IMG/VR virus record: IMGVR_UViG_3300031784_000011
Location: 1 to 64,000 of that record
Source of the DNA: a virus
Taxonomy: Duplodnaviria; Heunggongvirae; Uroviricota; Caudoviricetes
DNA length: 64,000 nucleotides
Direction: 5' to 3' (one strand)
The notes below the pieces were generated by a model, which saw only the letters and a list, made by a program, of their open reading frames with translations, was not told where the DNA came from and searched no databases. The position numbers were made by a program, and so were the translations under genes. Positions 1,080 through 60,210 of this stretch are shown here, piece by piece. How positions within the stretch are numbered: the stretch's first letter is position 1; each line of letters opens with the position of its first letter.

Positions 1080-1115
1080 ATTCTAAATATAAATGATTTT
1101 TTTGATAAAACAAAA

Positions 1116-1370
1116 TTAATCTTCACAGAAACAATTGTTTCTTGAAAGAGCGATTAACTTGATGTGTTTTAAACATTCATTGTCGGCCCTAACTACCGCA
1201 CCACACAAATCGTTATTCACAACAGATTGAACGAAACTACCCCCAATGGGTCCAACCCCATCTCTTGTTCTCATTACCGATACAATGATGTTGATGATGT
1301 GTTCACTAACATCATCTTGTCCATACCTCTTTACGAAGTCTTTTGCTGCACTATATAATTTTTCTTCCAT
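1116..1370 (-). CDS. hypothetical protein
   Basis: 84-aa ORF in the co-directional minus-strand gene array. Confidence 0.4.
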   Translation of the reverse strand: MEEKLYSAAKDFVKRYGQDDVSEHIINIIVSVMRTRDGVGPIGGSFVQSVVNNDLCGAVVRADNECLKHIKLIALSRNNCFCED

Positions 1371-1373
1371 ATT

Positions 1374-1598
1374 TTAAACATTCCATGATGCCAACATTTG
1401 TCCTATATCATCATTCCTGTCCCTACCGTCGGCTTTAAAATTATCATCATCCAGTGTAATATTTTTTGTGATTGTAATAATTCCTTTTTTTATCGCATCA
1501 CATGGTTTTCTGTTACATGGACAAATTCTATATTCGAATGAGGTGTTAATACCACATCTCACACATTCATAATAATCTTTTGTGGTTGTTGTTATCAT
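1374..1598 (-). CDS. small Cys-rich (zinc-ribbon-like) protein
   Basis: CxxC...CxC cysteine pattern (YECVRCG...ICPCNRKPC). Confidence 0.4.
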   Translation of the reverse strand: MITTTTKDYYECVRCGINTSFEYRICPCNRKPCDAIKKGIITITKNITLDDDNFKADGRDRNDDIGQMLASWNV

Positions 1599-1606
1599 TA
1601 TTAGAA

Positions 1607-2092
1607 TTAGTTGTCAAACCAAAAGACAACTCTAAAACCATTCTCTTTAATCGTATACCTCTTTTGGTCATCATTTGTTATCCAAAATTCTTCTTTAAAC
1701 CTATTGTCCATAGAGTCAACAAAATATTTTAAGTTCTCAACGATTTCTTCATTATCTGAATTATTGTACAGATAATCTTTGAGTTCTTTTAAGGTGTAGT
1801 AAGAAGCTGTATGGACCATATCACCTCTTTCATATTCCTTTCTTGTTGTCTCAGTCACATCCTCAGGTAAACCCCTTGGGTCCGCAATCGGGTCCATTGA
1901 ACCTCTGACCTCCGCAAGAATTGAGAATAAATCATAATTTCTTCCCCAATAAAAAGCAACGTGGTCGTACTCCCTTTCGGAATCGTTCATTCCAAAATGT
2001 GGATTTATTTGCCAATGGTCAACATTGACCCATTTATTTTCACCATTTACTGAAGTGTATTTTTCCAAATACACATGAATATCACATCCCAT
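1607..2092 (-). CDS. hypothetical protein
   Basis: 161 aa. Preceded by an exact TTG-N20-TATATTTG promoter-like element whose motif ends 4 nt before the ATG. Confidence 0.55.
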   Translation of the reverse strand: MGCDIHVYLEKYTSVNGENKWVNVDHWQINPHFGMNDSEREYDHVAFYWGRNYDLFSILAEVRGSMDPIADPRGLPEDVTETTRKEYERGDMVHTASYYTLKELKDYLYNNSDNEEIVENLKYFVDSMDNRFKEEFWITNDDQKRYTIKENGFRVVFWFDN

Positions 2093-2096
2093 GATT

Positions 2097-2127
2097 CAAA
2101 TATAATTAATAATTTTTAAAATGTCAA
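2097..2127 (-). promoter_or_regulatory. host sigma-A-type promoter candidate (TTG-N20-TATATTTG), leaderless
   Basis: Minus-strand TTG at 2125-2127, a 20-nt spacer, TATATTTG at 2097-2104, then aatc, then ATG of 1607..2092. Confidence 0.5.
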
Positions 2128-4268: not shown

Positions 4269-5378
4269 TTATTTTATGTTTAGTAAATATTTTTTAAATA
4301 ATTCGTGCTCAACTGACACGCAGATTCTAGAATATGATGACCATAAGTCCTTATCGTGATAAACAAACTTATCAAGACCAACAGCACCGATTCTATGTTG
4401 AAATAAGTAATCTTCCGATTTATTTATAACCGCGAAGATACCTAATGGTTGACCACCTTGGTAAATTTCTTCAACCAGTAGGTTTTTCTCTTTTAGGTAA
4501 TTTACATTCTTAAAGATATTATTAGTTGTTATATTTTTAAATTGTTCTAATGAACTTCTTCCTTCGGGTGTGGTTAAAACTTTCTCAATAATCATTTGAG
4601 ATGGGGAACATACGGCATTGAATTCATAAAGTAAACGAATGTTTAATTCTGAATTAAAATCCTTGTCCTTACAAAAAATGAAACCCATTCTTAAACCCGA
4701 TAAACCTACCCATTTTGAAAAAGATTCGGTGATAATAACATTATCAAGATGGGCAACTTTATCAAAGAAATCATCTTCATAAAATAACTTACGGTATGGT
4801 GAATCAAATATTATAATCGCACCTGTCATCGATATCTCATAAATCTTTCTGAAAAGAATGTTGTCATCTATTTTTACACCTGTAGGATTATTTGGGTCAC
4901 AAATAAAAATACAAGATGATTCACTAAAATTGGATGCTTCTAAAGATTCTAATGATTCATAAAATGAAAAAGACTTTTGTCTAATTGTTGCCATTTTAGA
5001 ATAAGAACCCCAATAAAATTTTGGGAAATAAATATTTTCTACATTTAATAATTGGATAACCAAATCTAACGCAGGCATACCACCTGGTGTGATTGCAATA
5101 TTATTGATGAAATTAGGTGAATTTGCAAATGAAGGAAAATATTCTGAAACGATAGAATGTCTAAATGTTTCAATACCCAAGTTAGGTGCATATACTTGAA
5201 ACTCTTTTGAGTTAAAATCAATTTGTTTCATAACTCCCGTCAAATCGATTTCCGTAACAGCGTTTACACCTCTATTTAATTCGAGATATGAATTACCTGA
5301 TTCTTTTGCCGCCCTTTTAACTTTCTGACCAATCCCTACTATCGAAGAGAAGGTTGCATTCGATATATTTACTTTCAT
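4269..5378 (-). CDS. class I/II PLP-dependent aminotransferase
   Basis: CDPNNPTG (NPTG motif) and ESFSKWVGLSGLRMGF (PLP-lysine SxSK...GxRxG) are diagnostic of fold-type I aminotransferases. Confidence 0.75.
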   Translation of the reverse strand: MKVNISNATFSSIVGIGQKVKRAAKESGNSYLELNRGVNAVTEIDLTGVMKQIDFNSKEFQVYAPNLGIETFRHSIVSEYFPSFANSPNFINNIAITPGGMPALDLVIQLLNVENIYFPKFYWGSYSKMATIRQKSFSFYESLESLEASNFSESSCIFICDPNNPTGVKIDDNILFRKIYEISMTGAIIIFDSPYRKLFYEDDFFDKVAHLDNVIITESFSKWVGLSGLRMGFIFCKDKDFNSELNIRLLYEFNAVCSPSQMIIEKVLTTPEGRSSLEQFKNITTNNIFKNVNYLKEKNLLVEEIYQGGQPLGIFAVINKSEDYLFQHRIGAVGLDKFVYHDKDLWSSYSRICVSVEHELFKKYLLNIK

Positions 5379-5450
5379 TATATTCTAAGTTAGTCTGTAC
5401 TTACCACTAACAAAATATAATAAAAAGAAATCGTATTTCCAAAAATTAAT

Positions 5451-5478
5451 AAAAAAAAATCCCCTTTCGGGGATTAAA
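5451..5478 (-). terminator. intrinsic terminator
   Basis: Hairpin atcccc-tttc-ggggat at 5459-5474, followed on the minus strand by a 9-nt T-run (A-run 5451-5459 on plus). It lies directly downstream of gene 5479..5835. Confidence 0.6.
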
Positions 5479-6445: not shown

Positions 6446-6826
6446 TTAACTTTTCGTAAAATGGTCCACGACCATTCTTGCACTTGAGTAGTTTGTAGCT
6501 AATGCCACTTCGTGCACATCACAAACCCTCATTAACATTTGTACATCAGGTTCGTGCGGGTGTTTATCCAATGGGTCCCTAAAAAATATAACCGCATCGA
6601 TTTCTTTTCTCGAGACCATTGCAGCAATTTCCGCGTCTCCACCCATTGGTCCTGAATTGACTTGTTCAACCTTTGTAACACCAGCAAACATTATTCTTTT
6701 ACCTGTCGTACCCGTTGCAACAATATCAACATCGGTTCGATTAAAAAAATCTAATCGTTTCATTACAAAGGCAACCATGTCCGCCTTCTTACCGTCGTGT
6801 GCTATGAGTGCTATTTTCATAATCAA
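6446..6826 (-). CDS. mgsA: methylglyoxal synthase
   Basis: IALIAHDGKK...ATGTTG...SGPMGGD...IFFRDPL...PHEPD aligns along its full length to MgsA, including the catalytic His/Asp region. Confidence 0.85.
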   Translation of the reverse strand: MIMKIALIAHDGKKADMVAFVMKRLDFFNRTDVDIVATGTTGKRIMFAGVTKVEQVNSGPMGGDAEIAAMVSRKEIDAVIFFRDPLDKHPHEPDVQMLMRVCDVHEVALATNYSSARMVVDHFTKS

Positions 6827-7290
6827 AAAATAAACAACCTACCCCCAATCATAAACTGAGGTTTATCGGTTTGATAAAAACTTAAAGTTAAGTACAAGGG
6901 ATATGATAATTTCAAATTTGCAGCGGTCTTCAATATAATTTGATTACCACCATCAACAGATAAACCCGCCCCACCTGTTAAAATTAACCATTTATAATCT
7001 TTATTTGTGTAAACGTAATTTAAAACAACATAAATTTCTTCAGGTCTACCATTGATTGTTAAAGTATTGGGGTTAAATAAATTTAATTCGGCCATCAATT
7101 TACCATAACCAATTCCAATAAAGGCATTTGTTTTTTCTTTGGAGAATTCGTAACCCGCGGAATAATATGATGAATTACCTCTAGGACCATAAGATAATCC
7201 ATAATTGAATATTCTTTGGGGTACTCTTAACCCTTGTGCCCATGTGTTGTTCATCAACAGCATACAAAATATCATTAAGAATTTTTTCAT
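6823..7290 (-). CDS. secreted outer-membrane beta-barrel-like protein
   Basis: Signal peptide MKKFLMIFCMLLMNNTWAQ. Alternating hydrophobic beta-strand pattern. C-terminal ...GGRLFIF ends in an aromatic residue, which is the OMP sorting signature. Confidence 0.45.
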   Translation of the reverse strand: MKKFLMIFCMLLMNNTWAQGLRVPQRIFNYGLSYGPRGNSSYYSAGYEFSKEKTNAFIGIGYGKLMAELNLFNPNTLTINGRPEEIYVVLNYVYTNKDYKWLILTGGAGLSVDGGNQIILKTAANLKLSYPLYLTLSFYQTDKPQFMIGGRLFIF

Positions 7291-7307: not shown

Positions 7308-7338
7308 CAAATATATTACTAGTATTTGAGATATCCAA
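7308..7338 (-). promoter_or_regulatory. host sigma-A-type promoter candidate (TTG-N20-TATATTTG)
   Basis: Minus-strand TTG at 7336-7338, a 20-nt spacer, TATATTTG at 7308-7315, 17 nt before the ATG of 6823..7290. Confidence 0.5.
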
Positions 7339-7348
7339 ATTTTTTTTC

Positions 7349-7375
7349 AAAAAAAAGAGGGACCGAAATCCCTCC
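7349..7375 (-). terminator. intrinsic terminator
   Basis: Hairpin gaggga-ccgaaa-tccctc at 7356-7374, with a T-run on the minus strand (A-run 7349-7355 on plus). Downstream of gene 7400..8440. Confidence 0.55.
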
Positions 7376-7399
7376 TTACAAATTTAGATTTGATTGTAA

Positions 7400-10726: not shown

Positions 10727-10960
10727 TTACTTGGTTGCAATTATTTCACCGGTTTCAACATCAGTTACGTATATTTTTCCATCGTCACCTTTACCAATAG
10801 CCACAGTTCTTTTTAATTCTTGTTCATCTTCGTACTCCTGAGCACCTGGTAATTCCTCGGGCTGTGCTTGAGTATCGAAATCATCAAACTCAGCTTCGTT
10901 GATTGTTCTTTTTACAATATTTTCTAAATCTTTGATTGATAATTTAACTACTTTTTTCAT
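10727..10960 (-). CDS. small acidic hypothetical protein
   Basis: 77-aa acidic ORF. Confidence 0.45.
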   Translation of the reverse strand: MKKVVKLSIKDLENIVKRTINEAEFDDFDTQAQPEELPGAQEYEDEQELKRTVAIGKGDDGKIYVTDVETGEIIATK

Positions 10961-10989
10961 TTTTTCTTTTATCTATAAATATCGTATGT

Positions 10990-11023
10990 AAACAAAAAAC
11001 CCCTCTTTCGAGGGGTTCTTTTT
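10990..11023 (-). terminator. intrinsic terminator (hairpin also usable on plus strand)
   Basis: cccctc-tttc-gagggg hairpin at 11000-11015, flanked by an A-run (10994-10999) and ttcttttt (11016-11023). Downstream of 11022..11873. Confidence 0.6.
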
Positions 11024-12259: not shown

Positions 12260-12931
12260 TTAACCTACAACATTTTTCATGTCGTCATTGTGATGGTCTA
12301 TATCCCCCAATTCAGAACCAATCGGAACCTTCAACATTGGATTTAAAACCTCATGTACAAAGTCATATGGTCTGAACTCAGGGTGTCCATCCATACCAAC
12401 ATCCATTCTTCTCCCACCACTAACTTTTAAGTGGTTAGGTAAATGACAGTGTCCGTGTAAATGGATTCTACCCTTTCTCAGATTGTTCCACGAACTGATA
12501 GGATAATGTAACATCTCGAATGAATGCCCTTGGTATTCAAGTCTATTGTAATGACTTACACTGGTAAATAAACTCTGACAATTCTCACGGTTTCTTTCAA
12601 TGTGATGGTCATGGTTACCCAATAGGATGTGAATCTCTTGACAAACGATTCTATGTCTGAATTCCGCTATATTATCAAACCCACCGAATGACCAATCACC
12701 CAAGTGAATCAAAACATCATCCTGTCCAACAACCTCATTGATGTTGTTTACAATCGCGGCGTTCATCTTATCAAGAGTTGCGAAGTCTCTCGTTTGATTA
12801 ACGGGAATACTACCGTCAGGCATTCTCCAATTAGTAATTCCTCTACATATATTAGTATGTGAGTAATGCGTGTCAGACGTTATCCAAACTTTTCTATTGT
12901 TATCTATTCTTAACATATTAACTAAAATCAA
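12260..12931 (-). CDS. calcineurin-like metallophosphoesterase
   Basis: Motifs DTHYSH, GDWSFGG, GNHDHH, HGHCH are the MPP-superfamily metal ligands. Confidence 0.65.
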   Translation of the reverse strand: MILVNMLRIDNNRKVWITSDTHYSHTNICRGITNWRMPDGSIPVNQTRDFATLDKMNAAIVNNINEVVGQDDVLIHLGDWSFGGFDNIAEFRHRIVCQEIHILLGNHDHHIERNRENCQSLFTSVSHYNRLEYQGHSFEMLHYPISSWNNLRKGRIHLHGHCHLPNHLKVSGGRRMDVGMDGHPEFRPYDFVHEVLNPMLKVPIGSELGDIDHHNDDMKNVVG

Positions 12932-13424
12932 CTGATGTACTCACACGAAGTCCATCGATTATTAAATCATCATATTTTTCGTTGTCCATCCAAAACATTC
13001 CGTGGCCTTTCGACCTTTGGTCTCTCCTGTATTCTTCATTTACAACCCAACCATCTGGTTGACCCCACTCAAGAGCCATGGTGATAAACTCTTCAACATT
13101 CCATTCTTCACCATATTCATCCACAATTCTTCCTGAACGAATAAATGAAAGTAGTTCTTCTTTATTTGAATAATGTTTATTATTATGAAAATTCCAACAA
13201 AACTTCCACCCACCACTTCTTTTACCTAAATGAATTGATGTACCATCTCTGAATATGTCCCAAGGGCTAACTATCTCCCAAGATTCTTTAAATGGGTCAA
13301 TAAAGGGAAATCCACGTTCAATATCACTAGGTGACATTGTCATCTTTTCTATATCTCTTTGGAGACGTGATTTACGTGACTCCATTTCCTCTGCGGTCGG
13401 TATACGATAATAATTTGTACCCAT
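12918..13424 (-). CDS. hypothetical protein (start moved to first in-frame ATG)
   Basis: The ORF track begins at a TTG (13443-13445). The first ATG (13422-13424) is preceded by an exact TTG-N20-TATATTTG element. Confidence 0.5.
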   Translation of the reverse strand: MGTNYYRIPTAEEMESRKSRLQRDIEKMTMSPSDIERGFPFIDPFKESWEIVSPWDIFRDGTSIHLGKRSGGWKFCWNFHNNKHYSNKEELLSFIRSGRIVDEYGEEWNVEEFITMALEWGQPDGWVVNEEYRRDQRSKGHGMFWMDNEKYDDLIIDGLRVSTSVDFS

Positions 13425-13442: not shown

Positions 13443-13473
13443 CAAATATATGAAATAATTTTGGATATACCAA
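13443..13473 (-). promoter_or_regulatory. host sigma-A-type promoter candidate (TTG-N20-TATATTTG)
   Basis: Minus-strand TTG at 13471-13473, a 20-nt spacer, TATATTTG at 13443-13450. Confidence 0.5.
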
Positions 13474-13480
13474 AATATTG

Positions 13481-13510
13481 CAAAAAAAAATCCCGATTTC
13501 TCGGGATTTA
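13481..13510 (-). terminator. intrinsic terminator
   Basis: Hairpin atcccga-tttc-tcgggat at 13490-13507, with a 9-nt T-run on minus (A-run 13482-13490). Downstream of 13524..14717. Confidence 0.6.
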
Positions 13511-14760: not shown

Positions 14761-14985
14761 TTAATACTTATCGGACAATCTTCTGACTTTTTCACCCAAT
14801 TCCATATCGTTTGGTGTATCCCTAATTAAATCAATTGGAACACATAAGTTTTTAGTCTCATCGGAACGATTACATTTCTCACACAATTGACCTAATCCCT
14901 CAACGTAACCGTATCTCAAATCAATATGAGTTTCAAATTCATATGGTGTCTCAACACCACAAATTACACAGGTATCTTTTGCCAT
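14761..14985 (-). CDS. small zinc-ribbon protein
   Basis: CVICG...CEKCN CxxC pairs. Confidence 0.45.
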   Translation of the reverse strand: MAKDTCVICGVETPYEFETHIDLRYGYVEGLGQLCEKCNRSDETKNLCVPIDLIRDTPNDMELGEKVRRLSDKY

Positions 14986-15040
14986 AACTTTTTGTTTTAT
15001 GAAAAGATATGAAAGAAAAAGAAAAAGTAAAATTAATTTT

Positions 15041-16420: not shown

Positions 16421-16993
16421 TTAAGTAAGGTAATCGATAATCTTTTGTTTTATACCAGATTGTTTGATACCTAAAGTAGATGATGGAGTTAATACAAAAT
16501 TATCTAAACCCCAATCTTTCCAGTCCTCTCCATTTTTACCCATATCCAAATCATCAACAGAAACCCAATGAGTAACTTCAGGGTGGTCGTGTAAAAATTG
16601 TTTAATCTCGATAACGCGAGTCATCTCCAAATCCCATCTCGGTGACCAAACCCATACTTTATCATTATACCAATTACACTGACCTAAATTAGGTGTGAGA
16701 GCGATTGGTTTTTTAGAGATACCTTTTGATTCGTAGTATTCACCCATTTCTTCGAGATTTGCCCACCTCTTCCAATCAGATGACGTTACAATTTCCGCAC
16801 CTGTTTTTTCGATGATTTGGTTTAATACCTTAACCGCTTTTTGATTGAAATTATCAAATCGGTATTCTAGTGGCATTTCTGATGTTGTCATAGATAATTT
16901 ACGACCACCCCATTTTTCTTGTTTCTTGAATCGACCACCCCATTCTGACGACAAACAAATTACACCGTCGTGGTCTAAAAATATAACTTTCAT
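16421..16993 (-). CDS. HAD-like hydrolase
   Basis: N-terminal VIFLDHDGVI (DxDG motif I). Confidence 0.45.
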   Translation of the reverse strand: MKVIFLDHDGVICLSSEWGGRFKKQEKWGGRKLSMTTSEMPLEYRFDNFNQKAVKVLNQIIEKTGAEIVTSSDWKRWANLEEMGEYYESKGISKKPIALTPNLGQCNWYNDKVWVWSPRWDLEMTRVIEIKQFLHDHPEVTHWVSVDDLDMGKNGEDWKDWGLDNFVLTPSSTLGIKQSGIKQKIIDYLT

Positions 16994-17676
16994 TTATTGA
17001 ATCTTTTAAATATTTTAATAAAGTCTGACGAATATTTTTCATAGACAGAATCTTTCCATTCATGATGTTTACCTGTTGACATGTATGCTTGAATCTCGTC
17101 ATCAATAATCGTTTTGTCGTCAGAATATCCACCTTTAATTAAAACTTTTTTCAAATGTTCATAATCTCTATGATTAATATCTCCAATTAAATAATCGACC
17201 TCAACTTTGTATTGTGGGTTTGTATAATAAAATCCGTGAGCTATTTCATGATTCATTACACCACTTTTTACTTTATCAGCGCCGATAAGATACCAAGAAT
17301 GTTGTTCACCACGATTCTTTATTCTACACTCTCTTTCACAGTATTCAATAATTTCATACATAGTATAATCATATTGGGTTCGAGGTAAACCAAACGTATT
17401 TTTTGCCTCTAAAAGAACTTTCGAGGGTATATTATAACCAGTCCAATCGCTTGGATACGTAAAATGAGGTTTTTTATTTGTATCAATGTACAACTTCATG
17501 TATTGTTCTAAAGTGAAAAACTTACCTCTAATCTGTGGGTATGGAGATTCGTAAAATTCTTGGTATCTACAAAACAAGCTAGACCTATCATATTGGTTTT
17601 TAACGATAACAGCAAATATGAAAGGTTTTATTTCTCTCACTTCACCTTCAATTAATGAATTTGAAATACGCATCAT
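16990..17676 (-). CDS. hypothetical protein with HExxH motif (putative zinc metallopeptidase)
   Basis: MNHEIAHGFYY contains HEIAH. Confidence 0.4.
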   Translation of the reverse strand: MMRISNSLIEGEVREIKPFIFAVIVKNQYDRSSLFCRYQEFYESPYPQIRGKFFTLEQYMKLYIDTNKKPHFTYPSDWTGYNIPSKVLLEAKNTFGLPRTQYDYTMYEIIEYCERECRIKNRGEQHSWYLIGADKVKSGVMNHEIAHGFYYTNPQYKVEVDYLIGDINHRDYEHLKKVLIKGGYSDDKTIIDDEIQAYMSTGKHHEWKDSVYEKYSSDFIKIFKRFNK

Positions 17677-17722
17677 TTTAAGATTTTTTAGTAAATATAA
17701 CTATTTTTTTTCAAATTATCAC

Positions 17723-17730
17723 TATATTTG
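17723..17730 (+). promoter_or_regulatory. TATATTTG -7-like element, leaderless
   Basis: Plus-strand TATATTTG, then 4 nt, then the GTG start of 17735..18202. The 17677-17734 region also carries a TATATTTA on the minus strand for 16990..17676 (divergent promoters). Confidence 0.4.
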
Positions 17731-17734
17731 ACTT

Positions 17735-18202
17735 GTGAATATATTCTTTCTTGATAAAGATGTAAAAAAATGTGCCGAATATCATTGCGACAAACACGTT
17801 GTGAAAATGATATTGGAAACTGCACAACTTTTGTGTGGGGCTCATCACATGACCGAACAAGTAACCGGTCAAGTACCGTACAAGTTGTCACATAAAAATC
17901 ACCCGTGTTCAATATGGGTAAGAGAATCCTTGACAAACTATCTAATACTCTGTGAATTGGGTTTAGAACTTTGTAAAGAGTACACTTACCGTTATGGTAA
18001 ACGTCATAAATCTCAAGAAGTTATTGAGTGGTGTGTCACAAATAAATTAAAAATTTGTGACAAAGGTTTGACTACACCACCAAAAGCAATGCCAATAGAG
18101 TATAAAACAGATTGTGTGATTGAATCTTACAGAAACTACTACAGGGGTGCAAAATCAAAATTCACAACATGGAAAAATAGAGATGTACCTCCTTGGTTTT
18201 AG
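17735..18202 (+). CDS. conserved hypothetical protein
   Basis: GTG start in the ORF track. N-terminus NIFFLDKDVKKCAEYHCDKHVVKMILETAQLL looks like a conserved phage family that I cannot name. Confidence 0.45.
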   Translation: MNIFFLDKDVKKCAEYHCDKHVVKMILETAQLLCGAHHMTEQVTGQVPYKLSHKNHPCSIWVRESLTNYLILCELGLELCKEYTYRYGKRHKSQEVIEWCVTNKLKICDKGLTTPPKAMPIEYKTDCVIESYRNYYRGAKSKFTTWKNRDVPPWF

Positions 18203-39904: not shown

Positions 39905-39906
39905 TA

Positions 39907-42103: not shown

Positions 42104-42717
42104 ATAATATAGAGCTAAAGACATTTATGATTAATCATAATGTTAATATCCATGGTGTGATTCACGTTGGTGCACATTTTGGTCAAGAAGATGAAGTTTA
42201 TAAGGAATTGGGTATTTCAAACAGAATATACTTTGAACCTCTATCGTCTAATTTTGAGACCTTAAAAGAAAAAATAGATGATGACGCAATTTTAGTTAAA
42301 CTGGCGTTAGGTAATGAAAAGAGAAAAGTTTCTATGTTTGTAGAATCCTTTAATAAAGGTATGTCATCCTCAATATTAGAACCGAAATTACATTCTGTTC
42401 AATTTCCTCATATCGTTTTTGATTCTGTAGAAGAAGTTGAAATGGATAGATTGGATGATTTAAATTACGATTTTTCAAAATACAACATGATGAATATCGA
42501 TGTTCAAGGTTTTGAATTAGAGGTTCTCAAAGGTTCCGTGAATACATTAATCAACATTGACTACGTTATTGTAGAAATAAACAGAGCCGAATTATATAAA
42601 GGTTGTCCACACTTTGATGAAATAAACAATTGGATGACACATCATGGGTTTACCTGTGTTGAACAATTTTGGTGGGGTAATAATTTTGGTGAGGGATTTT
42701 TTAAAAAAATAAAATGA
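42100..42717 (+). CDS. FkbM-family methyltransferase
   Basis: IHVGAHFGQEDEVY...YFEP. Confidence 0.5.
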   Translation: MNNIELKTFMINHNVNIHGVIHVGAHFGQEDEVYKELGISNRIYFEPLSSNFETLKEKIDDDAILVKLALGNEKRKVSMFVESFNKGMSSSILEPKLHSVQFPHIVFDSVEEVEMDRLDDLNYDFSKYNMMNIDVQGFELEVLKGSVNTLINIDYVIVEINRAELYKGCPHFDEINNWMTHHGFTCVEQFWWGNNFGEGFFKKIK

Positions 42718-43775
42718 AACGAGTATTAGTATTGGGTGGTGGCGGATTTATTGGTGGTCACCTAGCAAAAAGATTAAAAAATGAAGGAAACTACGTAAGA
42801 GTAGTTGATATAAAAAGACACGAATATTTTGATGAGAAAGACTTTTGTGACGAATTCTTAATATATGACCTTACGGACCCAAAAAACGTATCATCAGTAA
42901 TGAGATTAGAAGAATTAAATGGTACGATATTACCGTTTAATTATTACAAACAACCATATTCAACTGAGGTCCCATTTGATGAGGTTTATCAATTAGCTGC
43001 CGATATGGGTGGTGCTGGTTACATCTTCACTGGTGAAAATGACGCGAATGTTATGCACAATTCTGCAATGATAAATTTAAATGTTGTAAATGAATCAGTG
43101 AAGACAAAAGTTAAGAAGATTTTTTATTCATCATCGGCATGTATGTATCCTGAACACAATCAATTAGACCCTAACAACCCAAATTGTGAAGAATCATCAG
43201 CATATCCCGCGAATCCTGATTCAGAATATGGTTGGGAAAAACTTTTTTCGGAAAGGTTGTACTTGGCTTTTCACAGAAATCACGGTTTGGATGTTCGAAT
43301 TGCTAGATTTCATAACATATTTGGTCCATATGGTACGTGGAAAGGTGGTAAAGAAAAAGCACCAGCAGCTATGTGTAGAAAAGTTGCCGAAATGTTAGAC
43401 GGTGGAGAAATTGAAGTTTGGGGTGATGGTCAACAGACTCGTTCATTCTTATATGTGGATGAATGTGTTGAAGCGGTTTTAAGACTAATGAGACAAGACT
43501 CTTTTTTGGGTCCTGTAAACATTGGTTCTGAAGAGAAAGTAACAATTAATGATTTGGCTCAAATGGCTATAGATATTTCAGGTAAAGAAATTTATATCAG
43601 AAATATTGGTGGGGAAGAATTTAAACAGAAGTATGGATATAAATGTCCTGTTGGTGTGAGGGGAAGAAATTCAGACAATAAATTATACCACGAAAAAATA
43701 GGTTGGGTTGTTAGTGAACCTCTGTTCTATGGAATGGAAAAAACCTATAAATGGATTAATAGTTTAGTTAAATAA
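42714..43775 (+). CDS. GDP-mannose 3,5-epimerase-like NAD-dependent epimerase/dehydratase
   Basis: Rossmann GGGGFIGGHL. SEYGWEKLFSE (YxxxK). RFHNIFGPYGTWKGGKEKAPAAMCRK closely matches the plant/bacterial GME signature. Confidence 0.7.
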   Translation: MKRVLVLGGGGFIGGHLAKRLKNEGNYVRVVDIKRHEYFDEKDFCDEFLIYDLTDPKNVSSVMRLEELNGTILPFNYYKQPYSTEVPFDEVYQLAADMGGAGYIFTGENDANVMHNSAMINLNVVNESVKTKVKKIFYSSSACMYPEHNQLDPNNPNCEESSAYPANPDSEYGWEKLFSERLYLAFHRNHGLDVRIARFHNIFGPYGTWKGGKEKAPAAMCRKVAEMLDGGEIEVWGDGQQTRSFLYVDECVEAVLRLMRQDSFLGPVNIGSEEKVTINDLAQMAIDISGKEIYIRNIGGEEFKQKYGYKCPVGVRGRNSDNKLYHEKIGWVVSEPLFYGMEKTYKWINSLVK

Positions 43776-45759: not shown

Positions 45760-46650
45760 TTAATAATTCATAATCAGTAATTCAATACCTTCGTTTTGTG
45801 TTCCGTCTTTTTTAGCGGCAGCCGCCTTTTTGAAAGTTTCTTTAGCCCATTTGTAACCAGTTGGTTGAAACATCAAAAGTTGTCCATTTTTACCAATACC
45901 AACACCATTTTCGGGGAACCAATCATGAAGTTGTTTAAACTCATAATAAGATAAACTAAATTTACCTTGTATACCCTTTAATGTGTTTGCCAACCTTTCA
46001 TGGTCATTACTATCAAAATCATGATTTGAATAATAATTTTCTGTTTTCCAATAAGGGGGGTCCATGTAAAAATATGTTTTTGGCGAATCATACTTTTCAA
46101 CAACTTTTTGGAAATCCATGTTTTCGACAAACGTGATTCTATCTAAATGTGCTCTATATTCAGGATGTTTGAGTTTGTCCATAAAGATTAACACCTTACA
46201 TCTGTACTTACCCTTGTAATCAGTATAACTAGAAGTTTCGGGTTTGGAACCTGAGAAAACTTGAGTTAATACGTAAACGTATTTTGCGGCAACATCAAAA
46301 TTGGGCTCATCCCCAATGACTAATTCTTCGTTGAATACTTCTTTTTGGTATGTACGGAACATTTGTTCATATTCAGGTGGGGTGTTTTCCACACCTAATT
46401 GTTGACATGGGTATTTCGCGAGTTCATCCCATAACCTATCGTAATGTTTAGCACATTTAAAAAGGTTTGCGTTCAATCGATTAAAGTCATTGTAAACGAC
46501 TGTTTTGAGATTGGGGTATTTCTTTAGGTCCATATTAAAAAAGACCCAAAACATACCCGAAAACCCCTCCACGTAGGTTTCAATATCATTAGGTATGAAC
46601 GGAACAATCCACTTACCTATTCTAGCTTTTCCTCCAATGTAAGATATCAT
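45760..46650 (-). CDS. dam: D12-class N6-adenine DNA methyltransferase (Dam-like)
   Basis: N-terminal ISYIGGKARI and motif IV MDPPYWKT. Confidence 0.8.
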   Translation of the reverse strand: MISYIGGKARIGKWIVPFIPNDIETYVEGFSGMFWVFFNMDLKKYPNLKTVVYNDFNRLNANLFKCAKHYDRLWDELAKYPCQQLGVENTPPEYEQMFRTYQKEVFNEELVIGDEPNFDVAAKYVYVLTQVFSGSKPETSSYTDYKGKYRCKVLIFMDKLKHPEYRAHLDRITFVENMDFQKVVEKYDSPKTYFYMDPPYWKTENYYSNHDFDSNDHERLANTLKGIQGKFSLSYYEFKQLHDWFPENGVGIGKNGQLLMFQPTGYKWAKETFKKAAAAKKDGTQNEGIELLIMNY

Positions 46651-46940
46651 TTATAATTTTATATTTTGCGTTATTAGTCCTCTAACTATAAAAATATAAG
46701 AAACTTTTTTCAAAAATGGAAATCAGTGCGCACTTTTATTTTACCGGCTGAGATTTGGTCTTTCCACCTTTCTGTCTTTTTCTTCTCGCGGCGCAGTGGG
46801 CTTTTTGAGAAAAACCTTTTGGATTGCTACAATCTATGGTCTTTTTATATTTCATTGACCATTTTTCAACCACCATGTCTTCCAACAATTCAATCAATTT
46901 CATATTGATAAATACTTATTTATTACTTATTTTTTGTATT

Positions 46941-48896: not shown

Positions 48897-49361
48897 CTAC
48901 TTTTTCAAGTTTTGTTCGAATAATTTATAAATTTCTGTGAGAATGTCCAACTCGGACCTTGACTTTTGATATCTAAAATCAAATAACTTGTAAAAGTATT
49001 CAGATATTCTATTTTCTTTTTCTTCCAATTTAACAAAATAGTACGCCTCATAGAAAAAATTCCACATATATTCATAGTGGGTTCCTTTCTCCTTGAAGAA
49101 TATTTTTTCTTTATCAAAATTGGTGATTATTTTATTCCAACACCAATTAAAATGGTTTCGTTGGTCTATTTCGTCATAAAGTACATCAGAACCTAAAAAG
49201 GTTTCGTCTACTAAATCATATAAAGAAGATAGGAAATCATAAAATAATATTATTTTATCCCTATTAATGTTGTAGGTTCTATACCAAATGTCTATTTGAT
49301 GTTTGTATTTTTCAGAAATATCTGACTCAATATACTCTTCTCTATTTTCCATAATCCTCAT
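48897..49361 (-). CDS. hypothetical protein
   Basis: 154 aa. A TATATTTT element sits 5 nt upstream of the ATG. Confidence 0.5.
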   Translation of the reverse strand: MRIMENREEYIESDISEKYKHQIDIWYRTYNINRDKIILFYDFLSSLYDLVDETFLGSDVLYDEIDQRNHFNWCWNKIITNFDKEKIFFKEKGTHYEYMWNFFYEAYYFVKLEEKENRISEYFYKLFDFRYQKSRSELDILTEIYKLFEQNLKK

Positions 49362-49402
49362 CTGTTAAAATATAAGGATAAAAGAAAACAAAAAAAAGAA
49401 GA

Positions 49403-54128: not shown

Positions 54129-54941
54129 TTATAAATAGTTTAATAATCCATAACTGTCGTTACGAAGTTTCTTTAGTGCTTTATCACGTAGTTGTCTAAT
54201 ACGTTCTTTAGTGCATCCGAATTCATCACCCAAGTCTTCTAAATTCATTTCAATACCGTTCAACCCATAAGACTTTTCAATAATGACCTTTTCTCTATCG
54301 TCAAGGATTGAAAGCATTTGAGAAACTCTTTTTTTAATTTCTTCAGACGTATTTAAAATGTCTTCAGGGTTATCAGCGTTGACATTAATGATGGTATCGA
54401 TTAATTGGTCTCCCTCTTCATTTATTTCATCATTCAAGTTTACACAATGAGGTAGTACTATTTCTGCCCCATTATCTTCATAATTGATAAAGAAAGGGTC
54501 ATCAACATTTAACTGTTCATTTTTCTTTCTTTTTTGATTTTCCTGAATAATGTTTGACGGCAGTCTTATCATCCTTGAATTCTCGTTTAGAGAAGCCATA
54601 ATAGATTGTTTAATCCACCAAACAGCATATGAAATAAATTTGTAACCACTGTTAGGGTCAAATCTTTCGGCGGCTCGTATGAGACCGATATTACCTTCGG
54701 ATATTAAATCAATTAAATCCATACCATTGTTTTGATATGATTTAGCGACGGTGATTACAAAACGTAGATTACCCACTACGAGTTCGTTTAACAAATCGAC
54801 TCTTTCCTTCTTAGGTAGGTCTTTATTTTTTAAGAGTTCGAAGACTTCATCCTGTCTTTGGTGAGTAATTACCTTAATCTTTCGGATGTCTTTGATGTAG
54901 TTCTGAATTTCTTCAGTGTTGATTAGTAATGTTTTGGCCAT
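54129..54941 (-). CDS. sigma-70 family RNA polymerase sigma factor (regions 2-4)
   Basis: Region 2.2-2.4 DLISEGNIGLIRAAERFDPNSGYKFISYAVWWIKQSI. Region 4.2 LEDLGDEFGCTKERIRQLRDKALKKLR. Confidence 0.8.
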   Translation of the reverse strand: MAKTLLINTEEIQNYIKDIRKIKVITHQRQDEVFELLKNKDLPKKERVDLLNELVVGNLRFVITVAKSYQNNGMDLIDLISEGNIGLIRAAERFDPNSGYKFISYAVWWIKQSIMASLNENSRMIRLPSNIIQENQKRKKNEQLNVDDPFFINYEDNGAEIVLPHCVNLNDEINEEGDQLIDTIINVNADNPEDILNTSEEIKKRVSQMLSILDDREKVIIEKSYGLNGIEMNLEDLGDEFGCTKERIRQLRDKALKKLRNDSYGLLNYL

Positions 54942-54985
54942 GAATGTTCGGTTTGTGGTTCATGGGTAAAAATATGTAAAAAAAA

Positions 54986-56226: not shown

Positions 56227-56901
56227 TTATTTTTTCTTTCTAATTATCTCATCGATAATGCCATAACTCAACGCATCTTCTGATGATAACCACAAATCTC
56301 TCGACGCATCCTCCATGACAACTTCGGATGGTTTGTTACAATATTCACCCAATAGGTCAAATAGAATTTTATTTAATTTTTCCCATTCTTTCATATTAAT
56401 CTTAGCATCCTGAATATTACCTTCAAAACCTCCTGAAGACTGATGTAACATTGTTCTACTGAATCTTAGTGAACATCTCTTACCTTTTGTACCCGCACCA
56501 AGTAAAACCGAACCCATAGATGCTGCCATTCCAGTGTTGATTGTACGAATATCCGAGTTGATATAATCCATTACATCCACCATTGATAATCCACTTTTTA
56601 CAGAACCACCAGGACTATCAATGTGCATTGTGATATCAGTATTATCGATACTGTCTAAAAACATAAGTTGAGCTTGAACCACTGTCGACATGTTATCGTT
56701 TACAACACCCGCAACCCATATGATTCTTTCCATCATCAATCGTGAGAATACATCCATCACGGTTACGTTCATTTGTCTCTCTTCCAATATGTATGGAGTT
56801 AAACTGTCTTCAACTTGTTTGTTGTAGTGATGTAAATTTAAACCGCTAATCCCTTTGTCCTTAGCGAATAGTCCGAAGTCTTTATATAGTTTACTGTTCA
56901 T
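56227..56901 (-). CDS. clpP: ClpP-family serine protease
   Basis: Ser (GMAASMGS), His (MLHQSSGG) and Asp (SRDLWLSSEDALSYGIIDEI) triad regions are all present with ClpP spacing. Confidence 0.8.
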   Translation of the reverse strand: MNSKLYKDFGLFAKDKGISGLNLHHYNKQVEDSLTPYILEERQMNVTVMDVFSRLMMERIIWVAGVVNDNMSTVVQAQLMFLDSIDNTDITMHIDSPGGSVKSGLSMVDVMDYINSDIRTINTGMAASMGSVLLGAGTKGKRCSLRFSRTMLHQSSGGFEGNIQDAKINMKEWEKLNKILFDLLGEYCNKPSEVVMEDASRDLWLSSEDALSYGIIDEIIRKKK

Positions 56902-56940
56902 GTGAATTATTTTTTTTAAATCTAAGAAAAAAAAGTGATA

Positions 56941-59307
56941 TTAAGAAATTTTTGGTGTGATAAAATCAATTGAACTAATGTTGTTATCTTTTTTGACCAT
57001 AACCAAATTGTCCGACCAGTTTCTAATTAATGGGTTATGGGAAATAACAAATATGTGTTCAAAATAATCTTTAATTTTTTTGAAGAACTCTCCCACCATT
57101 TCCAAATTCTCATCCGCAATTTTACCAAATACTTCATCCATTACAACAATATTTGGTTTGGGTAATGACGATATCTTGGTTAATACGCTTCGAAGGGCAA
57201 GTGATGAAATAGTTCTTTCATAACCCGAACCACTAACGAGTGGTTTTACTACTCTAGTTTCAGTATCAATCATTATAAATTCAACCTCGTTTCTCTCGTT
57301 GATGTTCAATTCTAAAATAAAGTGACAACTATCAACTAAAAGTCTGTACAACTCTTGGTTAATTAGTGGGACCATATTTTTTAAAATAACCTTTGAGATT
57401 CCATTCTTACCGAAAACGGTTAGGTAAACCTTGAAGATAGATTGAGTTTCATTTTCAACTTTTATCTTTCTAATTAAATCCTTATTAGTTTCAATTTTTT
57501 CAGTTAAAGTTTGATTCTGATTTTTTAATCTTTCAATAGTAGTGCCATAACTTCTTAGATTTGCATTGAGGGTTTCAATTTGAGACTTTAAACCCACAAT
57601 TTCAGCATCTATTCTTTGATTCTCTTCTAACTTTTGTTTGTTGCGGTCATAGTTATCAAGTTTTGTTTGTAACTTTTCAATTTCTATTTTTTTCTGCTCG
57701 ACCTCCAACTCATACCTTGTCTTTTTAATTTTGTTTTTTTCGTACCCATCGTACTCTTTTTTCAAATCAATAAAGACCTTTTCCTTTTCAGTTAATTCAT
57801 CATACTTCTTACGATTATCTGTTTGAATTTTCCTAATTGATTCGACCAATTCTTTTAATTTATTTATTTCATCAGTGTGGTCAACCTCAGCTAATGCTCT
57901 TTTACAGGTCGGACATATTTGTCCTTCCTCTAATTGTTTTATTAGTTCTTCGTTTCGTTTAATGGAGTCAGCATTTACTCTACCTTCCACAACTATTCCA
58001 TTCATTTCATCTTTTAGTAACAAATGATTTTCCTCAAGATAAAACTGTGAAGGTTCTTTTACATTAACAGAATCGGCGTTAGTAATTGAAACTTGTTTTT
58101 GTTTTTCCAAATTACTAATATCAACCTTTATTTGACTTGTATTGGTACGAATTAAATCTTGGTCAATATCTGTGTTTCTTTTTGACAACAAATCATCTCT
58201 TTTATTTTCCGCATTTTTTAAGGTTGACTGAGTTTTTGTTGTTTCAATTTCTAATCTAGATATTTCTGATTTGTTTTCATCGATACCTTCTTGAAAAGAA
58301 GTAATCTCTGTTTCCAAATCATTCATATTATGATTATTGGAAATCAATTTTTTACTCCATTCACTTTGAATTGTTTTACAGATTTCTTCTTTTTCTTTAA
58401 GAATTTCTAAACCTAAAAACTTTGTAAGTATTAAACCTCTTGCAGTAGGTTTTGATTCAATGAGTTCTTCTAAATTATTTCCAGTTGTTAATATTGTTGA
58501 TAGAAAATCTTCCTCTGTGCCGATTGCCTTTGTTATAAAATCTTCAGTTTCTCTACGTTGTTCACCTGTTAAATTTTCAATCGTACCATCTTGATTTTTT
58601 TTATAAAAATCCAATTTATTTGTGACGGTATAATCACCACTTTTTGTTTTCTTACGTGAGCTTATTCTCTCAATAATGTAGTCCTCATTGTCTATGGTTA
58701 TGTATCCCTTAACTTTTACTTCGTCATTGTTACTGAACCTATTGAAAATTTCTGAATTGGTTTTAGTTTTTGTGGTTTTATTAAAAAATAAAAACATCAT
58801 TAAATCAACTGTTGCAGTTGACTTACCACCAAAATTTTTGGGTGTAGATTCTACAACTGTGATGCCGGGTAATATGGTAAAATCAATCTCATTGTTTCCC
58901 CCATAGGACAGGAAATTTGAAAATTCAACCTTTTTGATATACCATTTAGTGTATTTGATTCTATCACCGTTTTTACGGATGAATTCTTCATTTACTTTAT
59001 TGTCAAGATTATTAAGTCTTTCTAATGATATATTGATTTCATTCTCCTCAACGAAATCTTTCATCAAAGTTTTTTGGTACTGAAAATCAGAAATATTTTC
59101 TGTTATGTCTAATGACGCTAATTTTGTTTGGTCATCATTGGATATAACTTTAGTTATAATTTGAACGTACTTTGTGTTGTATTTCTTTTGAAAATATGAT
59201 TTAACTCTATTGAGTTTTTCAGAGGTGAAGTTCTCATGTGTATCCTGCCATGTAACTTTAATGTAGGGATTTTTAAGATTGGTTACTTCTTTCTTTGTAG
59301 TGTCCAT
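56941..59307 (-). CDS. SbcC/Rad50-like recombination ATPase (T4 gp46 analogue)
   Basis: Walker A PKNFGGKST. Central coiled coil with a CPTC zinc hook. C-terminal VVMDEVFGKIAD (Walker B/D-loop). Confidence 0.8.
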   Translation of the reverse strand: MDTTKKEVTNLKNPYIKVTWQDTHENFTSEKLNRVKSYFQKKYNTKYVQIITKVISNDDQTKLASLDITENISDFQYQKTLMKDFVEENEINISLERLNNLDNKVNEEFIRKNGDRIKYTKWYIKKVEFSNFLSYGGNNEIDFTILPGITVVESTPKNFGGKSTATVDLMMFLFFNKTTKTKTNSEIFNRFSNNDEVKVKGYITIDNEDYIIERISSRKKTKSGDYTVTNKLDFYKKNQDGTIENLTGEQRRETEDFITKAIGTEEDFLSTILTTGNNLEELIESKPTARGLILTKFLGLEILKEKEEICKTIQSEWSKKLISNNHNMNDLETEITSFQEGIDENKSEISRLEIETTKTQSTLKNAENKRDDLLSKRNTDIDQDLIRTNTSQIKVDISNLEKQKQVSITNADSVNVKEPSQFYLEENHLLLKDEMNGIVVEGRVNADSIKRNEELIKQLEEGQICPTCKRALAEVDHTDEINKLKELVESIRKIQTDNRKKYDELTEKEKVFIDLKKEYDGYEKNKIKKTRYELEVEQKKIEIEKLQTKLDNYDRNKQKLEENQRIDAEIVGLKSQIETLNANLRSYGTTIERLKNQNQTLTEKIETNKDLIRKIKVENETQSIFKVYLTVFGKNGISKVILKNMVPLINQELYRLLVDSCHFILELNINERNEVEFIMIDTETRVVKPLVSGSGYERTISSLALRSVLTKISSLPKPNIVVMDEVFGKIADENLEMVGEFFKKIKDYFEHIFVISHNPLIRNWSDNLVMVKKDNNISSIDFITPKIS

Positions 59308-59789
59308 TTGTTCTTCTTTAAGTTATAGGTTTGAACGTGTTCTTTTTTAAATGACATCCATTTTTCTATCTCTTCACTATTGTTTGGTTTGAATTCTGTG
59401 AAAAGTATTTTGTCTTTATTCTTAATTGTGGTTGGTTTTATTAATATAACTTGAGTAAAATCTCTGTTTGTTCTAATAAACCAATGCTTATTTTTGTTTG
59501 GGGTTATAGTATCACCTACTTTATCGTACCAATACTTTACCTTCCGTATTGGAATATTAACAGTCCTAAAATCATAACCACTAATCAAGGAATATTCATT
59601 CTCCCAAAAATCACCAATCCAACCCCCTCTTTCCAACTCCACACCAAATGAATTATCGTCAACACAAATTAAATCAATTGCTTTTGAATTAGGATGTGAC
59701 TCGAACAAAATGTTAAAAACTTCTTTAATGAAAATTTTAGCAAAATTTCTTACTTCAGTGTCATCAAAACTTCTTTTTATGTAACCCAT
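59283..59789 (-). CDS. hypothetical protein
   Basis: 168-aa ORF. Confidence 0.45.
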   Translation of the reverse strand: MGYIKRSFDDTEVRNFAKIFIKEVFNILFESHPNSKAIDLICVDDNSFGVELERGGWIGDFWENEYSLISGYDFRTVNIPIRKVKYWYDKVGDTITPNKNKHWFIRTNRDFTQVILIKPTTIKNKDKILFTEFKPNNSEEIEKWMSFKKEHVQTYNLKKNKWTLQRKK

Positions 59790-59817
59790 TTAAAATTTTT
59801 GAACATCCCGTCAGGGT

Positions 59818-60162
59818 TTATTTATTGAATCTACTTTCTTCAAAGAATTCAACTATTCCATTTATAGCCCATACACTTCCCGCGGTAAACATACCGTCAA
59901 AGAAAATAGATGGTAACCAATGAATACCAAAATGAGTTGTCATTCCCCCGAGACAGATTGAAAAGAAGAATCCAACCCATGTTGATGTACATAACATACA
60001 ACTAATCAATCCTGAAATAAAATTTCCAACTCCTTGTAAAGGAGCGTATTCATTTTTGGCCCAATTATGTATGGAATCTCTTACAGAGTCAAAAATAGAA
60101 CCGTAAACGATTATAGTGCTCATTCCATATGCTGCCATAATCCAAATAAAAATGTTTGTCAT
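59818..60162 (-). CDS. polytopic membrane protein
   Basis: Three to four TM helices. Confidence 0.45.
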   Translation of the reverse strand: MTNIFIWIMAAYGMSTIIVYGSIFDSVRDSIHNWAKNEYAPLQGVGNFISGLISCMLCTSTWVGFFFSICLGGMTTHFGIHWLPSIFFDGMFTAGSVWAINGIVEFFEESRFNK

Positions 60163-60210
60163 GTTTGAATGTATTTTATAAAATATATGAAAAAAAAATC
60201 AATAAAAAAA

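Follow-up and report, generated by a model that had tools for sequence, protein, structure and literature searches.

What starts transcription in a large uncultivated phage, and do some of its messages begin directly at the start codon? The question is raised by 64 kb of the IMG/VR Caudoviricetes record IMGVR_UViG_3300031784_000011 (G+C 31-32%; this whole stretch is hereafter the window), in which an A/T-rich box, TATATTTG or a close variant, recurs in front of genes, in several cases with a TTG about 20 nucleotides (nt) before it. An original prediction made on this DNA took the combination for promoters of the Bacteroidota type that drive leaderless genes. In this report, we conclude that these elements are Bacteroidota-type promoters, most likely read by the host sigma-A and giving rise to leaderless messages where an ATG adjoins the box, a reading to which we assign a probability of about 0.8. 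The structural (presumably late) genes lie outside the window, and our promoter search covers the part devoted to replication, repair and nucleotide metabolism.

The boxes are concentrated in intergenic DNA in the sense orientation

The coordinates given in the original prediction are correct: the octamer TATATTTG is found at 2097, 7308, 13443, 19188 and 22510 on the minus strand and at 17723 on the plus strand, its variant TATATTTA at 1084 and 17692 and its variant TATATTTT at 29802, 49367 and 60180, and a TTG lies exactly 20 nt upstream of the octamer at 2097, 7308, 13443 and 19188. Six more copies of TATATTTG, unlisted before, all lie inside coding DNA (36652 and 48364 on the plus strand; 42079, 45126, 45725 and 55297 on the minus strand). 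The whole-window count of 12 is near chance (7.63 ± 2.08 expected), and that of the generic box TANNTTTG is at chance (96 versus 105 expected). When the motif upstream of starts is compared with the motif elsewhere, which was the test proposed at the outset, recurrence alone is weak, and the intergenic sense location is far above chance. Six of the 12 copies fall in the ~2.25 kb of intergenic DNA, which makes up 3.5% of the window, and each is oriented to the downstream gene. Expected counts for this DNA were obtained from a first-order Markov model trained on the same intergenic sequence, oriented towards the adjacent gene start (2.5 kb), with 1000 simulations. In the sense orientation, TATATTTG occurs 5 times (0.22 expected), TATATTT 13 times (2.27 expected; reached by none of the 1000 simulations) and ATATTT 27 times (7.5 expected), and the corresponding antisense counts are 0, 0 and 1. 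TATAAT is not enriched (3 sense copies versus 4.06 expected; 2 antisense). An unbiased k-mer screen found ATATTT in 23 of 36 upstream gaps (3.8 expected) and TATATTT in 11 of the 36 (0.93 expected). The reality of the signal rests on its location, not on the recurrence of the octamer.

The box belongs to a two-block arrangement. TTG-N20-TATATTT occurs 11 times in the window (1.15 ± 1.0 expected; 11 was reached in none of 100 shuffles), and TTG-N19-TATATTT is at chance. For family-wide tests, genes were called in ~40 related IMG/VR contigs and the alignment was anchored on the box, giving a set of 95 non-redundant TATATTT sites in upstream gaps. A TTG stands at a spacing of 20 nt in 25 of these sites and of 19 nt in 11, with about one at each other spacing; this −33 element is often extended to TTGGAWAT or TTGAC. 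The original prediction gave a spacer range of 17-23 nt for Bacteroidota. At the 8th base of the box, the family sites have T in 40, G in 32, A in 16 and C in 7 cases, and among the 36 sites with a TTG at N19-21, 17 have G; G is above background here, yet far from invariant. Since only 32 of the 95 sites end in G, the conserved unit is TATATTT and not TATATTTG, and the earlier view of an identical octamer with a terminal G as the conserved unit has to be abandoned.

Terminator-like hairpins number 19 in the first 20 kb of the window (9.0 expected), and hairpins lie directly upstream of the boxes at 5412, 7308, 10976 and 13443 and of the primase box, as expected at transcription-unit boundaries. 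A second promoter class with a 12-nt spacer (TTGA-N11-TATATTT, at 17692, 46691, 54968 and 60180) was considered and rejected as a coincidence: its TTG is unconserved in orthologs and, in the sigma promoter, is the stop codon of the upstream gene. The family spacing histogram has only a minor bump at N=12. Exact TTG-N20-TATATTT also occurs inside coding DNA, at 24800-24829 (minus strand), 27916-27945 (plus) and 62518-62547 (plus), two of these copies being antisense to local genes; because about one such match is expected by chance, some of them may be internal or antisense promoters. One TTG-N20-TATATTTG lies in the sense orientation inside a glycosyltransferase gene (36629-36659).

Predicted promoters and their conservation among relatives

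The predicted promoter sites, each read in the direction of its gene, are listed below.

1084-1113, minus strand: TTG 1113-1111, 19-nt spacer, TATATTTA 1091-1084, 4 nt, ATG 1079 (gene 825-1079)
2097-2127, minus strand: TTGACA 2127-2122, TATATTTG 2104-2097, 4 nt, ATG 2092 (gene 1607-2092)
5412-5475, minus strand: hairpin 5475-5458, TTG 5442-5440, 20-nt spacer, TATATTTT 5419-5412, 33 nt, ATG 5378 (aminotransferase gene 4269-5378)
7308-7377, minus strand: terminator 7377-7354, TTG 7338-7336, 20-nt spacer, TATATTTG 7315-7308, 17 nt, ATG 7290 (gene 6823-7290)
10976-11017, minus strand: hairpin 11017-10998, variant box GATATTTA 10983-10976, 15 nt, ATG 10960 (gene 10727-10960); lower confidence
13443-13509, minus strand: terminator 13509-13488, TTG 13473-13471, 20-nt spacer, TATATTTG 13450-13443, 18 nt, ATG 13424 (gene 12918-13424)
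15002-15009, minus strand: box TATCTTTT, 16 nt, ATG 14985 (gene 14761-14985); kept in relative L047
17692-17699, minus strand: box TATATTTA, 15 nt, ATG 17676 (gene 16990-17676); no TTG at 19-21 nt
17702-17730, plus strand: boxes TATTTTTT 17702-17709 and TATATTTG 17723-17730 before the DenV-like pyrimidine-dimer glycosylase gene 17735-18202 (GTG start)
19188-19218, minus strand: TTG 19218-19216, 20-nt spacer, TATATTTG 19195-19188, 20 nt, ATG 19167 (open reading frame of 54 amino acids, 19003-19167)
22510-22517, minus strand: box TATATTTG, 15 nt, ATG 22494 (PcfJ-like gene 20659-22494); −33 element degenerate (ATGG)
29802-29832, minus strand: TTGAC 29832-29828, 20-nt spacer, TATATTTT 29809-29802, 6 nt, ATG 29795 (gene 29550-29795)
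46691-46698, minus strand: box TATATTTT, 40 nt, ATG 46650 (DNA methyltransferase gene 45760-46650)
49367-49374, minus strand: box TATATTTT, 5 nt to ATG 49361, 14 nt to ATG 49352
54967-54974, minus strand: box TATTTTTA, 25 nt, ATG 54941 (phage sigma-factor gene 54129-54941)
56917-56924, minus strand: box TAGATTTA, 15 nt, ATG 56901 (ClpP-like protease gene 56227-56901)
60180-60187, minus strand: box TATATTTT, 17 nt, ATG 60162 (gene 59818-60162)
63292-63372, minus strand: hairpin 63372-63335, TTG 63327-63325, 20-nt spacer, TATATTTT 63304-63297, 4 nt, ATG 63292 (DNA primase gene 62354-63292)

Phylogenetic footprinting defined which positions of the box are held. In the orthologous promoters of the sigma, protease, methyltransferase and other genes, T1, A2 and T5-T7 are kept, and positions 3-4 (TA, TT, TC, CT, CA, AC or CC), the flanks and the distance to the ATG vary; the box is retained at distances of 3 to 43 nt. 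Among primase orthologs, position 5 varies as well (T, C or A). Judged from these alignments, fixed T1, A2 and T5-T7 around a free middle is the Bacteroidota −7 rule and not the TATAAT rule. The sigma-gene promoter reads TATTTTTA, TATCTTTA, TATATTTA, TACTTTTA, TATATTGT or TATATTTG across orthologs, mostly of the form TAnnTTTA, and many of these promoters have TTTG 19-20 nt upstream of the box. The canonical TAnnTTTG is found in 12 of ~18 orthologs of the ClpP-like protease (TACTTTTG, TATATTTG, TACATTTG, TAACTTTG and TATCTTTG), and TTG-N20-TATATTTG upstream of genes 1607-2092 and 6823-7290 is kept down to 44-49% protein identity.

Individual sites were likewise recovered in relatives. The 1084 promoter has an ortholog in L039 (TTTG-N-TATAATTA, then gaat and ATG), and the 2097 promoter is kept in L039 (4 nt to the ATG) and L040 (TTG-N20-TATATTTG, 16 nt to the ATG). 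The 10976 box has G instead of T as its first base, and cGATATTTAT is kept in L040 although the flanks have diverged. The L047 counterpart of the 17692 box is TATTTTTA in the same place, and the 22510 arrangement is identical in L047. The 46691 box is kept in ~10 orthologs, 5-40 nt from the start, and the 60180 box in 12, where it lies just 3 nt from the ATG in L013, L014, L035 and L021. In the divergent region 17677-17734 (58 nt), promoters stand back to back, with the minus-strand box at 17699-17692 facing away from the two plus-strand boxes.

Two further features of the promoters were noted. The 7308 promoter is kept whole, spacer included, in L047 and L040; this spacer (7316-7335, minus strand) is GGATATCTCAAATACTAGTAA, with the palindromes GATATC and TACTAGTA, and its conservation at 44-76% protein identity exceeds what a spacer would require, which suggests a possible operator. 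An inverted repeat, TTGGAAAT-N3-ATTT(T)C, spans the −33 element in both the 5412 (5420-5442) and the 19188 (19196-19218) promoters, which lie on the minus strand.

The distance to the start codon points to leaderless messages for some genes

According to the original prediction, boxes lie either 4-7 nt (six cases) or 15-21 nt from the start codon. The longer group holds, at 15-20 nt (22510, 17692, 7308, 60180, 13443 and 19188), and the shorter one comprises five cases and not six, at 4 nt (2097, 17723 and 1084), 5 nt (49367) and 6 nt (29802). The family sites are also bimodal, with distances of 3-6 nt (28 sites) and of 14-17 nt, and a distance of at most 6 nt is found in at least one member of 15 of the 45 promoter-bearing gene families, or about a third. 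In the window, a generic box followed by d nt and an ATG that opens a reading frame of at least 50 amino acids peaks at d=4 (8 cases). Bacteroidota promoters have the box at −12 to −5 and the transcription start 4-5 nt past it (PMC6847099, PMC9723704); therefore, a box followed by 4 nt and an ATG predicts a 5'-terminal AUG. It is from this geometry that we infer leaderless messages. The predicted leaderless starts at 1079, 2092, 29795 and 63292 are ATG codons that leave no room for a Shine-Dalgarno sequence, and that at 17735 is GTG.

The strength of the leaderless reading differs from gene to gene. The geometry is solid for the 2097 box with ATG 2092 and for the 1084 box with ATG 1079, as read from the sequence; an alignment to phrog_10141 that begins at residue 1, together with agreement among orthologs, supports the start at 2092. 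The 29802 box, 6 nt from ATG 29795, is a plausible near-leaderless case with no orthologs to confirm the start. A leaderless GUG start at 17735, downstream of the 17723 box, is doubtful. The Pfam domain Pyr_excise aligns from residue 1 of the 17735-18202 product, favouring the GTG start, and the second plus-strand box at 17702-17709 could supply a leadered glycosylase transcript. For ATG 49361 the leaderless reading is wrong: the short distance of the 49367 box is an artefact of the start call, because the orthologs begin at ATG 49352, 14 nt from the box. They align from residue 4 and start with ATGGAA, and ATG 49352 is probably the real start of this gene. A Shine-Dalgarno-like AAGGA(tt) stands 5-6 nt before this ATGGAA (49352-49366, minus strand) and is kept in ~10 relatives, in a genome almost without Shine-Dalgarno sequences. 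Further candidates with a generic box at d=4 (starts 52016, 20635 and 6820) were not confirmed; upstream of 52016, conservation is due to coding.

The best leaderless candidate, absent from the earlier list, is the DNA primase gene with its true start at 63292. The longest primase reading frame (62354-63334) is 14 codons too long; its extension spans the gene's own promoter and begins right after the hairpin, and more than 20 primase orthologs start at residue 15 of the longer frame, that is, at ATG 63292. About 25 orthologs (45-98% identity) share the hairpin, a T-rich spacer with TTTG and a box with invariant T1, A2, T6 and T7 (T-A-n-n-n-T-T-N), and in most of them exactly 4 unconserved nt separate the box from the ATG (atct, aacc, acat, agtc, attt, attc, gagt or tacc). 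With a terminator directly upstream, the primase gene needs its own promoter, and the sole conserved candidate leaves, by its position, no room for a leader.

A probable Bacteroidota host and the polymerase that would read the boxes

The window contains ~101 called genes, tightly packed; most are encoded by the minus strand, and those at 31.2-43.8 kb form a plus-strand block. Recognizable replication and repair genes encode a superfamily 1 (SF1) helicase, a primase, SbcC-like and SbcD-like proteins and an exonuclease; others encode thymidylate synthase, two DNA methyltransferases, the DenV-like glycosylase, the ClpP-like protease and an RpoD/RpoS-like sigma factor. The source is a large uncultivated phage, probably with a genome of 170 kb or more, and dozens of relatives are present in IMG/VR (contigs of 170-290 kb, G+C 28-33%). 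Among deposited phages, Megablast found no relative close at the DNA level, and tblastn gave no match with a 458-amino-acid window protein and only remote Bacillus and Staphylococcus phage matches with the SbcC-like protein. The best deposited relatives of the helicase are those of the Bacteroides phages DAC16-23 and SJC03 (167-179 kb), followed by Chryseobacterium and Flavobacterium phages, and the phage NAD-dependent epimerase is 70-76% identical to genes of Flavobacterium, Chryseobacterium, Kaistella, Chitinophagaceae and Saprospiraceae. The general absence of Shine-Dalgarno sequences noted earlier is borne out: only 2 of 101 genes have a core Shine-Dalgarno sequence upstream, a frequency below that of the coding controls, and the upstream regions are A-rich. 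Shine-Dalgarno scarcity and A-rich upstream regions are Bacteroidota traits (PMC6847099). On the helicase and epimerase relatives and the few Shine-Dalgarno sequences, a Bacteroidota host is likely, with good indirect support at the phylum level, the part of the earlier host assignment that stands; this support does not extend to the class proposed, Flavobacteriia.

The evidence for such a host therefore identifies the elements as Bacteroidota −33/−7 type promoters. Assignment to the −33 TTG/−7 TAnnTTT(G) type agrees with the strand-specific intergenic enrichment, the 19-20-nt spacer, the upstream terminators and the ortholog conservation with free middle positions; motif, strand and location bias, spacing and conservation are all direct observations. 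We propose a model in which each promoter would consist of a −33 TTG, a spacer of 19-20 nt and a −7 box with the core T-A-n-n-T-T-T, which in this phage would mostly be TATATTT followed by G, T or A. Transcription units of the replication, repair and nucleotide-metabolism region would begin at these promoters, often right after an intrinsic terminator. The most likely reader would be the host core RNA polymerase with host sigma-A, and transcription would begin 4-5 nt past the box. Where an ATG lies 3-6 nt past the box (1079, 2092, 63292 and probably 29795), the 5' end of the mRNA would coincide with the AUG or lie no more than 1-2 nt from it, and the message would be translated as leaderless; the remaining promoters would give very short A-rich leaders of ~10-16 nt. 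The 'early class' transcribed by unmodified host polymerase, as first suggested, is an interpretation drawn from gene content only.

Several points weigh against this model. From the sequence we infer all of promoter activity, start sites, leaderless translation and the sigma factor used. Leaderless mRNAs are rare in the Bacteroidota studied, at 3.7-5.5% of mRNAs (PMC7366714, PMC9723704). The commonest short spacing in many relatives is 3 nt and not 4-5 nt, which needs a start one base nearer the box than is usual in the host. G at −5 is nearly invariant in Flavobacterium johnsoniae promoters (PMC6847099), and just 32 of the 95 family sites carry it; of the 36 with an upstream TTG, 17 do. In addition, TTG-N20-TATATT has the same geometry as TTGACA-N17-TATAAT, and the site 2127-2099 matches 11 of 12 positions of the sigma-70 consensus. 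Finally, the phage's own full-length RpoD-like sigma could read some or all of the boxes.

The phage sigma factor and other explanations

The last of these points leads to the strongest competing explanation, in which the boxes, or the subset not ending in G, are read by the phage RpoD-like sigma on the host core polymerase and form a phage-specific middle-gene class. The sigma protein (54129-54941, minus strand) is compact (270 amino acids) and RpoD/RpoS-like, about equally near SigA, RpoS and RpoD in PDB and NCBIfam comparisons; it scores like group 1/2 sigma factors and has regions 2 and 4, and it could therefore read a two-block promoter. It is conserved throughout the clade, with more than 120 distinct metagenomic protein clusters of at least 67% identity, all ~269 amino acids long, on contigs of up to ~319 kb. 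A search for its ancestry among 5.8 billion proteins returned only clade members among the best 120 matches. The distribution of the 8th base also speaks for such a class: this base tends to stay constant within orthologous promoter families, the intergenic G-type boxes all lie in the left 22 kb, only non-G boxes are found at 44-64 kb around the sigma gene, and G at −5 is nearly invariant in host promoters (PMC6847099). Against this, boxes of the non-G type stand both in the promoter of the sigma gene itself and in all promoters of the 10 kb upstream of it, so that a requirement for the phage sigma would create a bootstrapping problem. G and non-G sites agree in their −33 element, in their spacing and in the core of the box and do not separate cleanly, and the same orthologous promoter switches among G, A and T across relatives; a division into two sigma regulons is a trend and is not established. 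Moreover, the TA(C/T)CTTTA boxes of a cultured Chryseobacterium phage are also non-G, and no second motif was found in gaps that lack the box. On balance, we regard a phage-sigma class as quite unlikely.

The original prediction also held that genes lacking the motif may depend on the phage sigma factor, for which we found no support: a gap of less than 15 nt separates 59 of 100 genes from the co-directional gene before them, with which they are therefore probably co-transcribed. Across the family, gaps that lack ATATTT contain an excess of TATCTTTG (15 versus 0.6 expected, in 7 gene families), of TATCTTT and TATACT and of A-rich leaders; in these gaps no distinct second motif was found, only box variants and A-rich leaders.

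Ordinary sigma-70 −35/−10 promoters in an AT-rich phage of a non-Bacteroidota host would account for the geometry shared with TTGACA-N17-TATAAT, for the 11 of 12 consensus positions at 2127-2099 and for the several −33 elements that read TTGAC. This explanation is nevertheless very improbable, given that TATAAT is unenriched (3 versus 4.06), that a scan for the sigma-70 consensus is at chance (101 sites versus 97.6 ± 9.6 in shuffles), that conservation reaches T at −8, T at −6 and in many cases G at −5, and that Shine-Dalgarno sequences are absent and the helicase and epimerase relatives come from Bacteroidota. It is scarcely credible that the box is an A/U-rich ribosome-recruiting element acting at the RNA or translation level, or a by-product of AT-rich intergenic composition: many copies do lie 3-20 nt from start codons and Bacteroidota do use A/U-rich upstream sequence instead of Shine-Dalgarno sequences (PMC6847099), but a translation signal would have no use for a TTG at a set distance of 19-20 nt upstream, the box stays while its distance from the ATG ranges over 3-43 nt among orthologs, boxes come after terminators, and the intergenic-trained Markov model gives 2.3 copies and not 13, with antisense copies absent.

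Comparison with known promoters and phages

The elements resemble the sigma-ABfr/sigma-A promoters of Bacteroides fragilis, F. johnsoniae, F. psychrophilum and B. thetaiotaomicron (−33 TTTG, −7 TAnnTTTG) in having a TTG ~19-20 nt before an 8-nt box; in the conservation of T−12, A−11, T−8, T−7 and T−6 around a free middle that is rarely G; and in the AT-rich spacer, the lack of Shine-Dalgarno sequences, the A-rich leaders and the occurrence of TAnnTTTG in many orthologs (PMC6847099, PMC9723704, PMC7366714). They differ from host promoters in that the middle positions of the box are strongly biased towards TA (TATATTT), no more than about a third to half of the sites have G at −5, and the −33 TTG stands out far more clearly than in host sets, where it can hardly be made out (PMC6847099). 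A control by the same method on 62 Bacteroidota genome loci gave 39 TAnnTTTG sites with no −33 peak, in a small and noisy sample. The predicted phage leaders are 0-2 nt or ~10-16 nt long, whereas host medians are 24-32 nt. As in leaderless mRNAs, for example that of lambda cI from PRM and those that abound in Mycobacterium and Deinococcus, the predicted start, judged here from geometry, is the A of the AUG with no Shine-Dalgarno sequence; this arrangement appears at least once in about a third of the clade's promoter-bearing families, well above the frequency reported for host genomes. With sigma-70 promoters the elements share the inter-block distance and conserved A−11 and T−7; unlike them, they have no enrichment of TATAAT, T and not A at −8, and conservation extending to −6/−5. 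A T4-type late promoter, with a −10-only TATAAATA and a gp55-like minimal sigma, is excluded by the −33 TTG at fixed spacing and by a sigma factor with regions 2 and 4.

Comparable elements are found in two deposited phages, whose helicases are 33-36% identical to that of the window. In Chryseobacterium phage MA9V-3 (L129), cTGTTGTCt-N20/21-TA(C/T)CTTTA, with the same spacing and a non-G 8th base (A), is a repeated element that precedes at least 7 small genes, at ~12.9-16.3 kb and 39.9 kb (TGTTGTCT 7 times versus 0.16 expected). Bacteroides phage DAC22 (L128) has TACCTTTG and TATATTTG boxes. Unlike those of the window, the boxes lie far from the ATG (~25-30 nt in MA9V-3, ~45-55 nt in DAC22) and form no leaderless cluster, and the −33 contexts differ. 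In DAC22, TACCTTTG is followed by GTAAAAAGGGA ~45-55 nt before starts (upstream of 3051, 8115 and 27056), a repeat that reads as a canonical −7 box plus a conserved downstream element. In the open-access literature, we found no description of such Bacteroidota-type promoters in phages, MA9V-3 and DAC22 included.

Implications and further observations

Bacteroidota-type −33/−7 promoters in a phage are expected biology and no new kind of regulatory system. What is distinctive is the TA-biased middle of the box, the relaxed −5 position, the clearer −33 TTG and leaders that are very short or missing. A promoter model made up of TTG, 19-20 nt and TAnnTTT (biased to TATATTT) is usable for an abundant clade of large uncultivated phages and supports Bacteroidota hosts for it; it also corrects gene starts, such as those of the primase (63292) and of the gene at 49352, and would offer natural strong promoters for Flavobacteriia genetics. 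In addition, it makes the testable prediction that several conserved genes, the primase above all, are carried on leaderless mRNAs in a phylum where these are rare. A further-reaching idea is that, in this clade, a sizeable fraction of the genes has moved to messages with no leader or almost none, with the primase promoter fused to the AUG clade-wide, and that these genes are driven by a phage-tuned host promoter with a relaxed −5 that is maybe read preferentially by the phage RpoD-like sigma. We consider this rather unlikely; if true, the shift would be a phage strategy to escape or outcompete the Shine-Dalgarno-free initiation rules of the host.

Among the other contents of the window, a tRNA scan found none. 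The two DNA methyltransferase genes are separate (30218-31072 and 45760-46650, both on the minus strand). A 12-kb glycan-biosynthesis cluster (31666-43775, plus strand) with almost no internal gaps lies inside the phage and encodes several family-2 glycosyltransferases, a UDP-GlcNAc 2-epimerase, an FkbM methyltransferase and an NAD-dependent epimerase/dehydratase.

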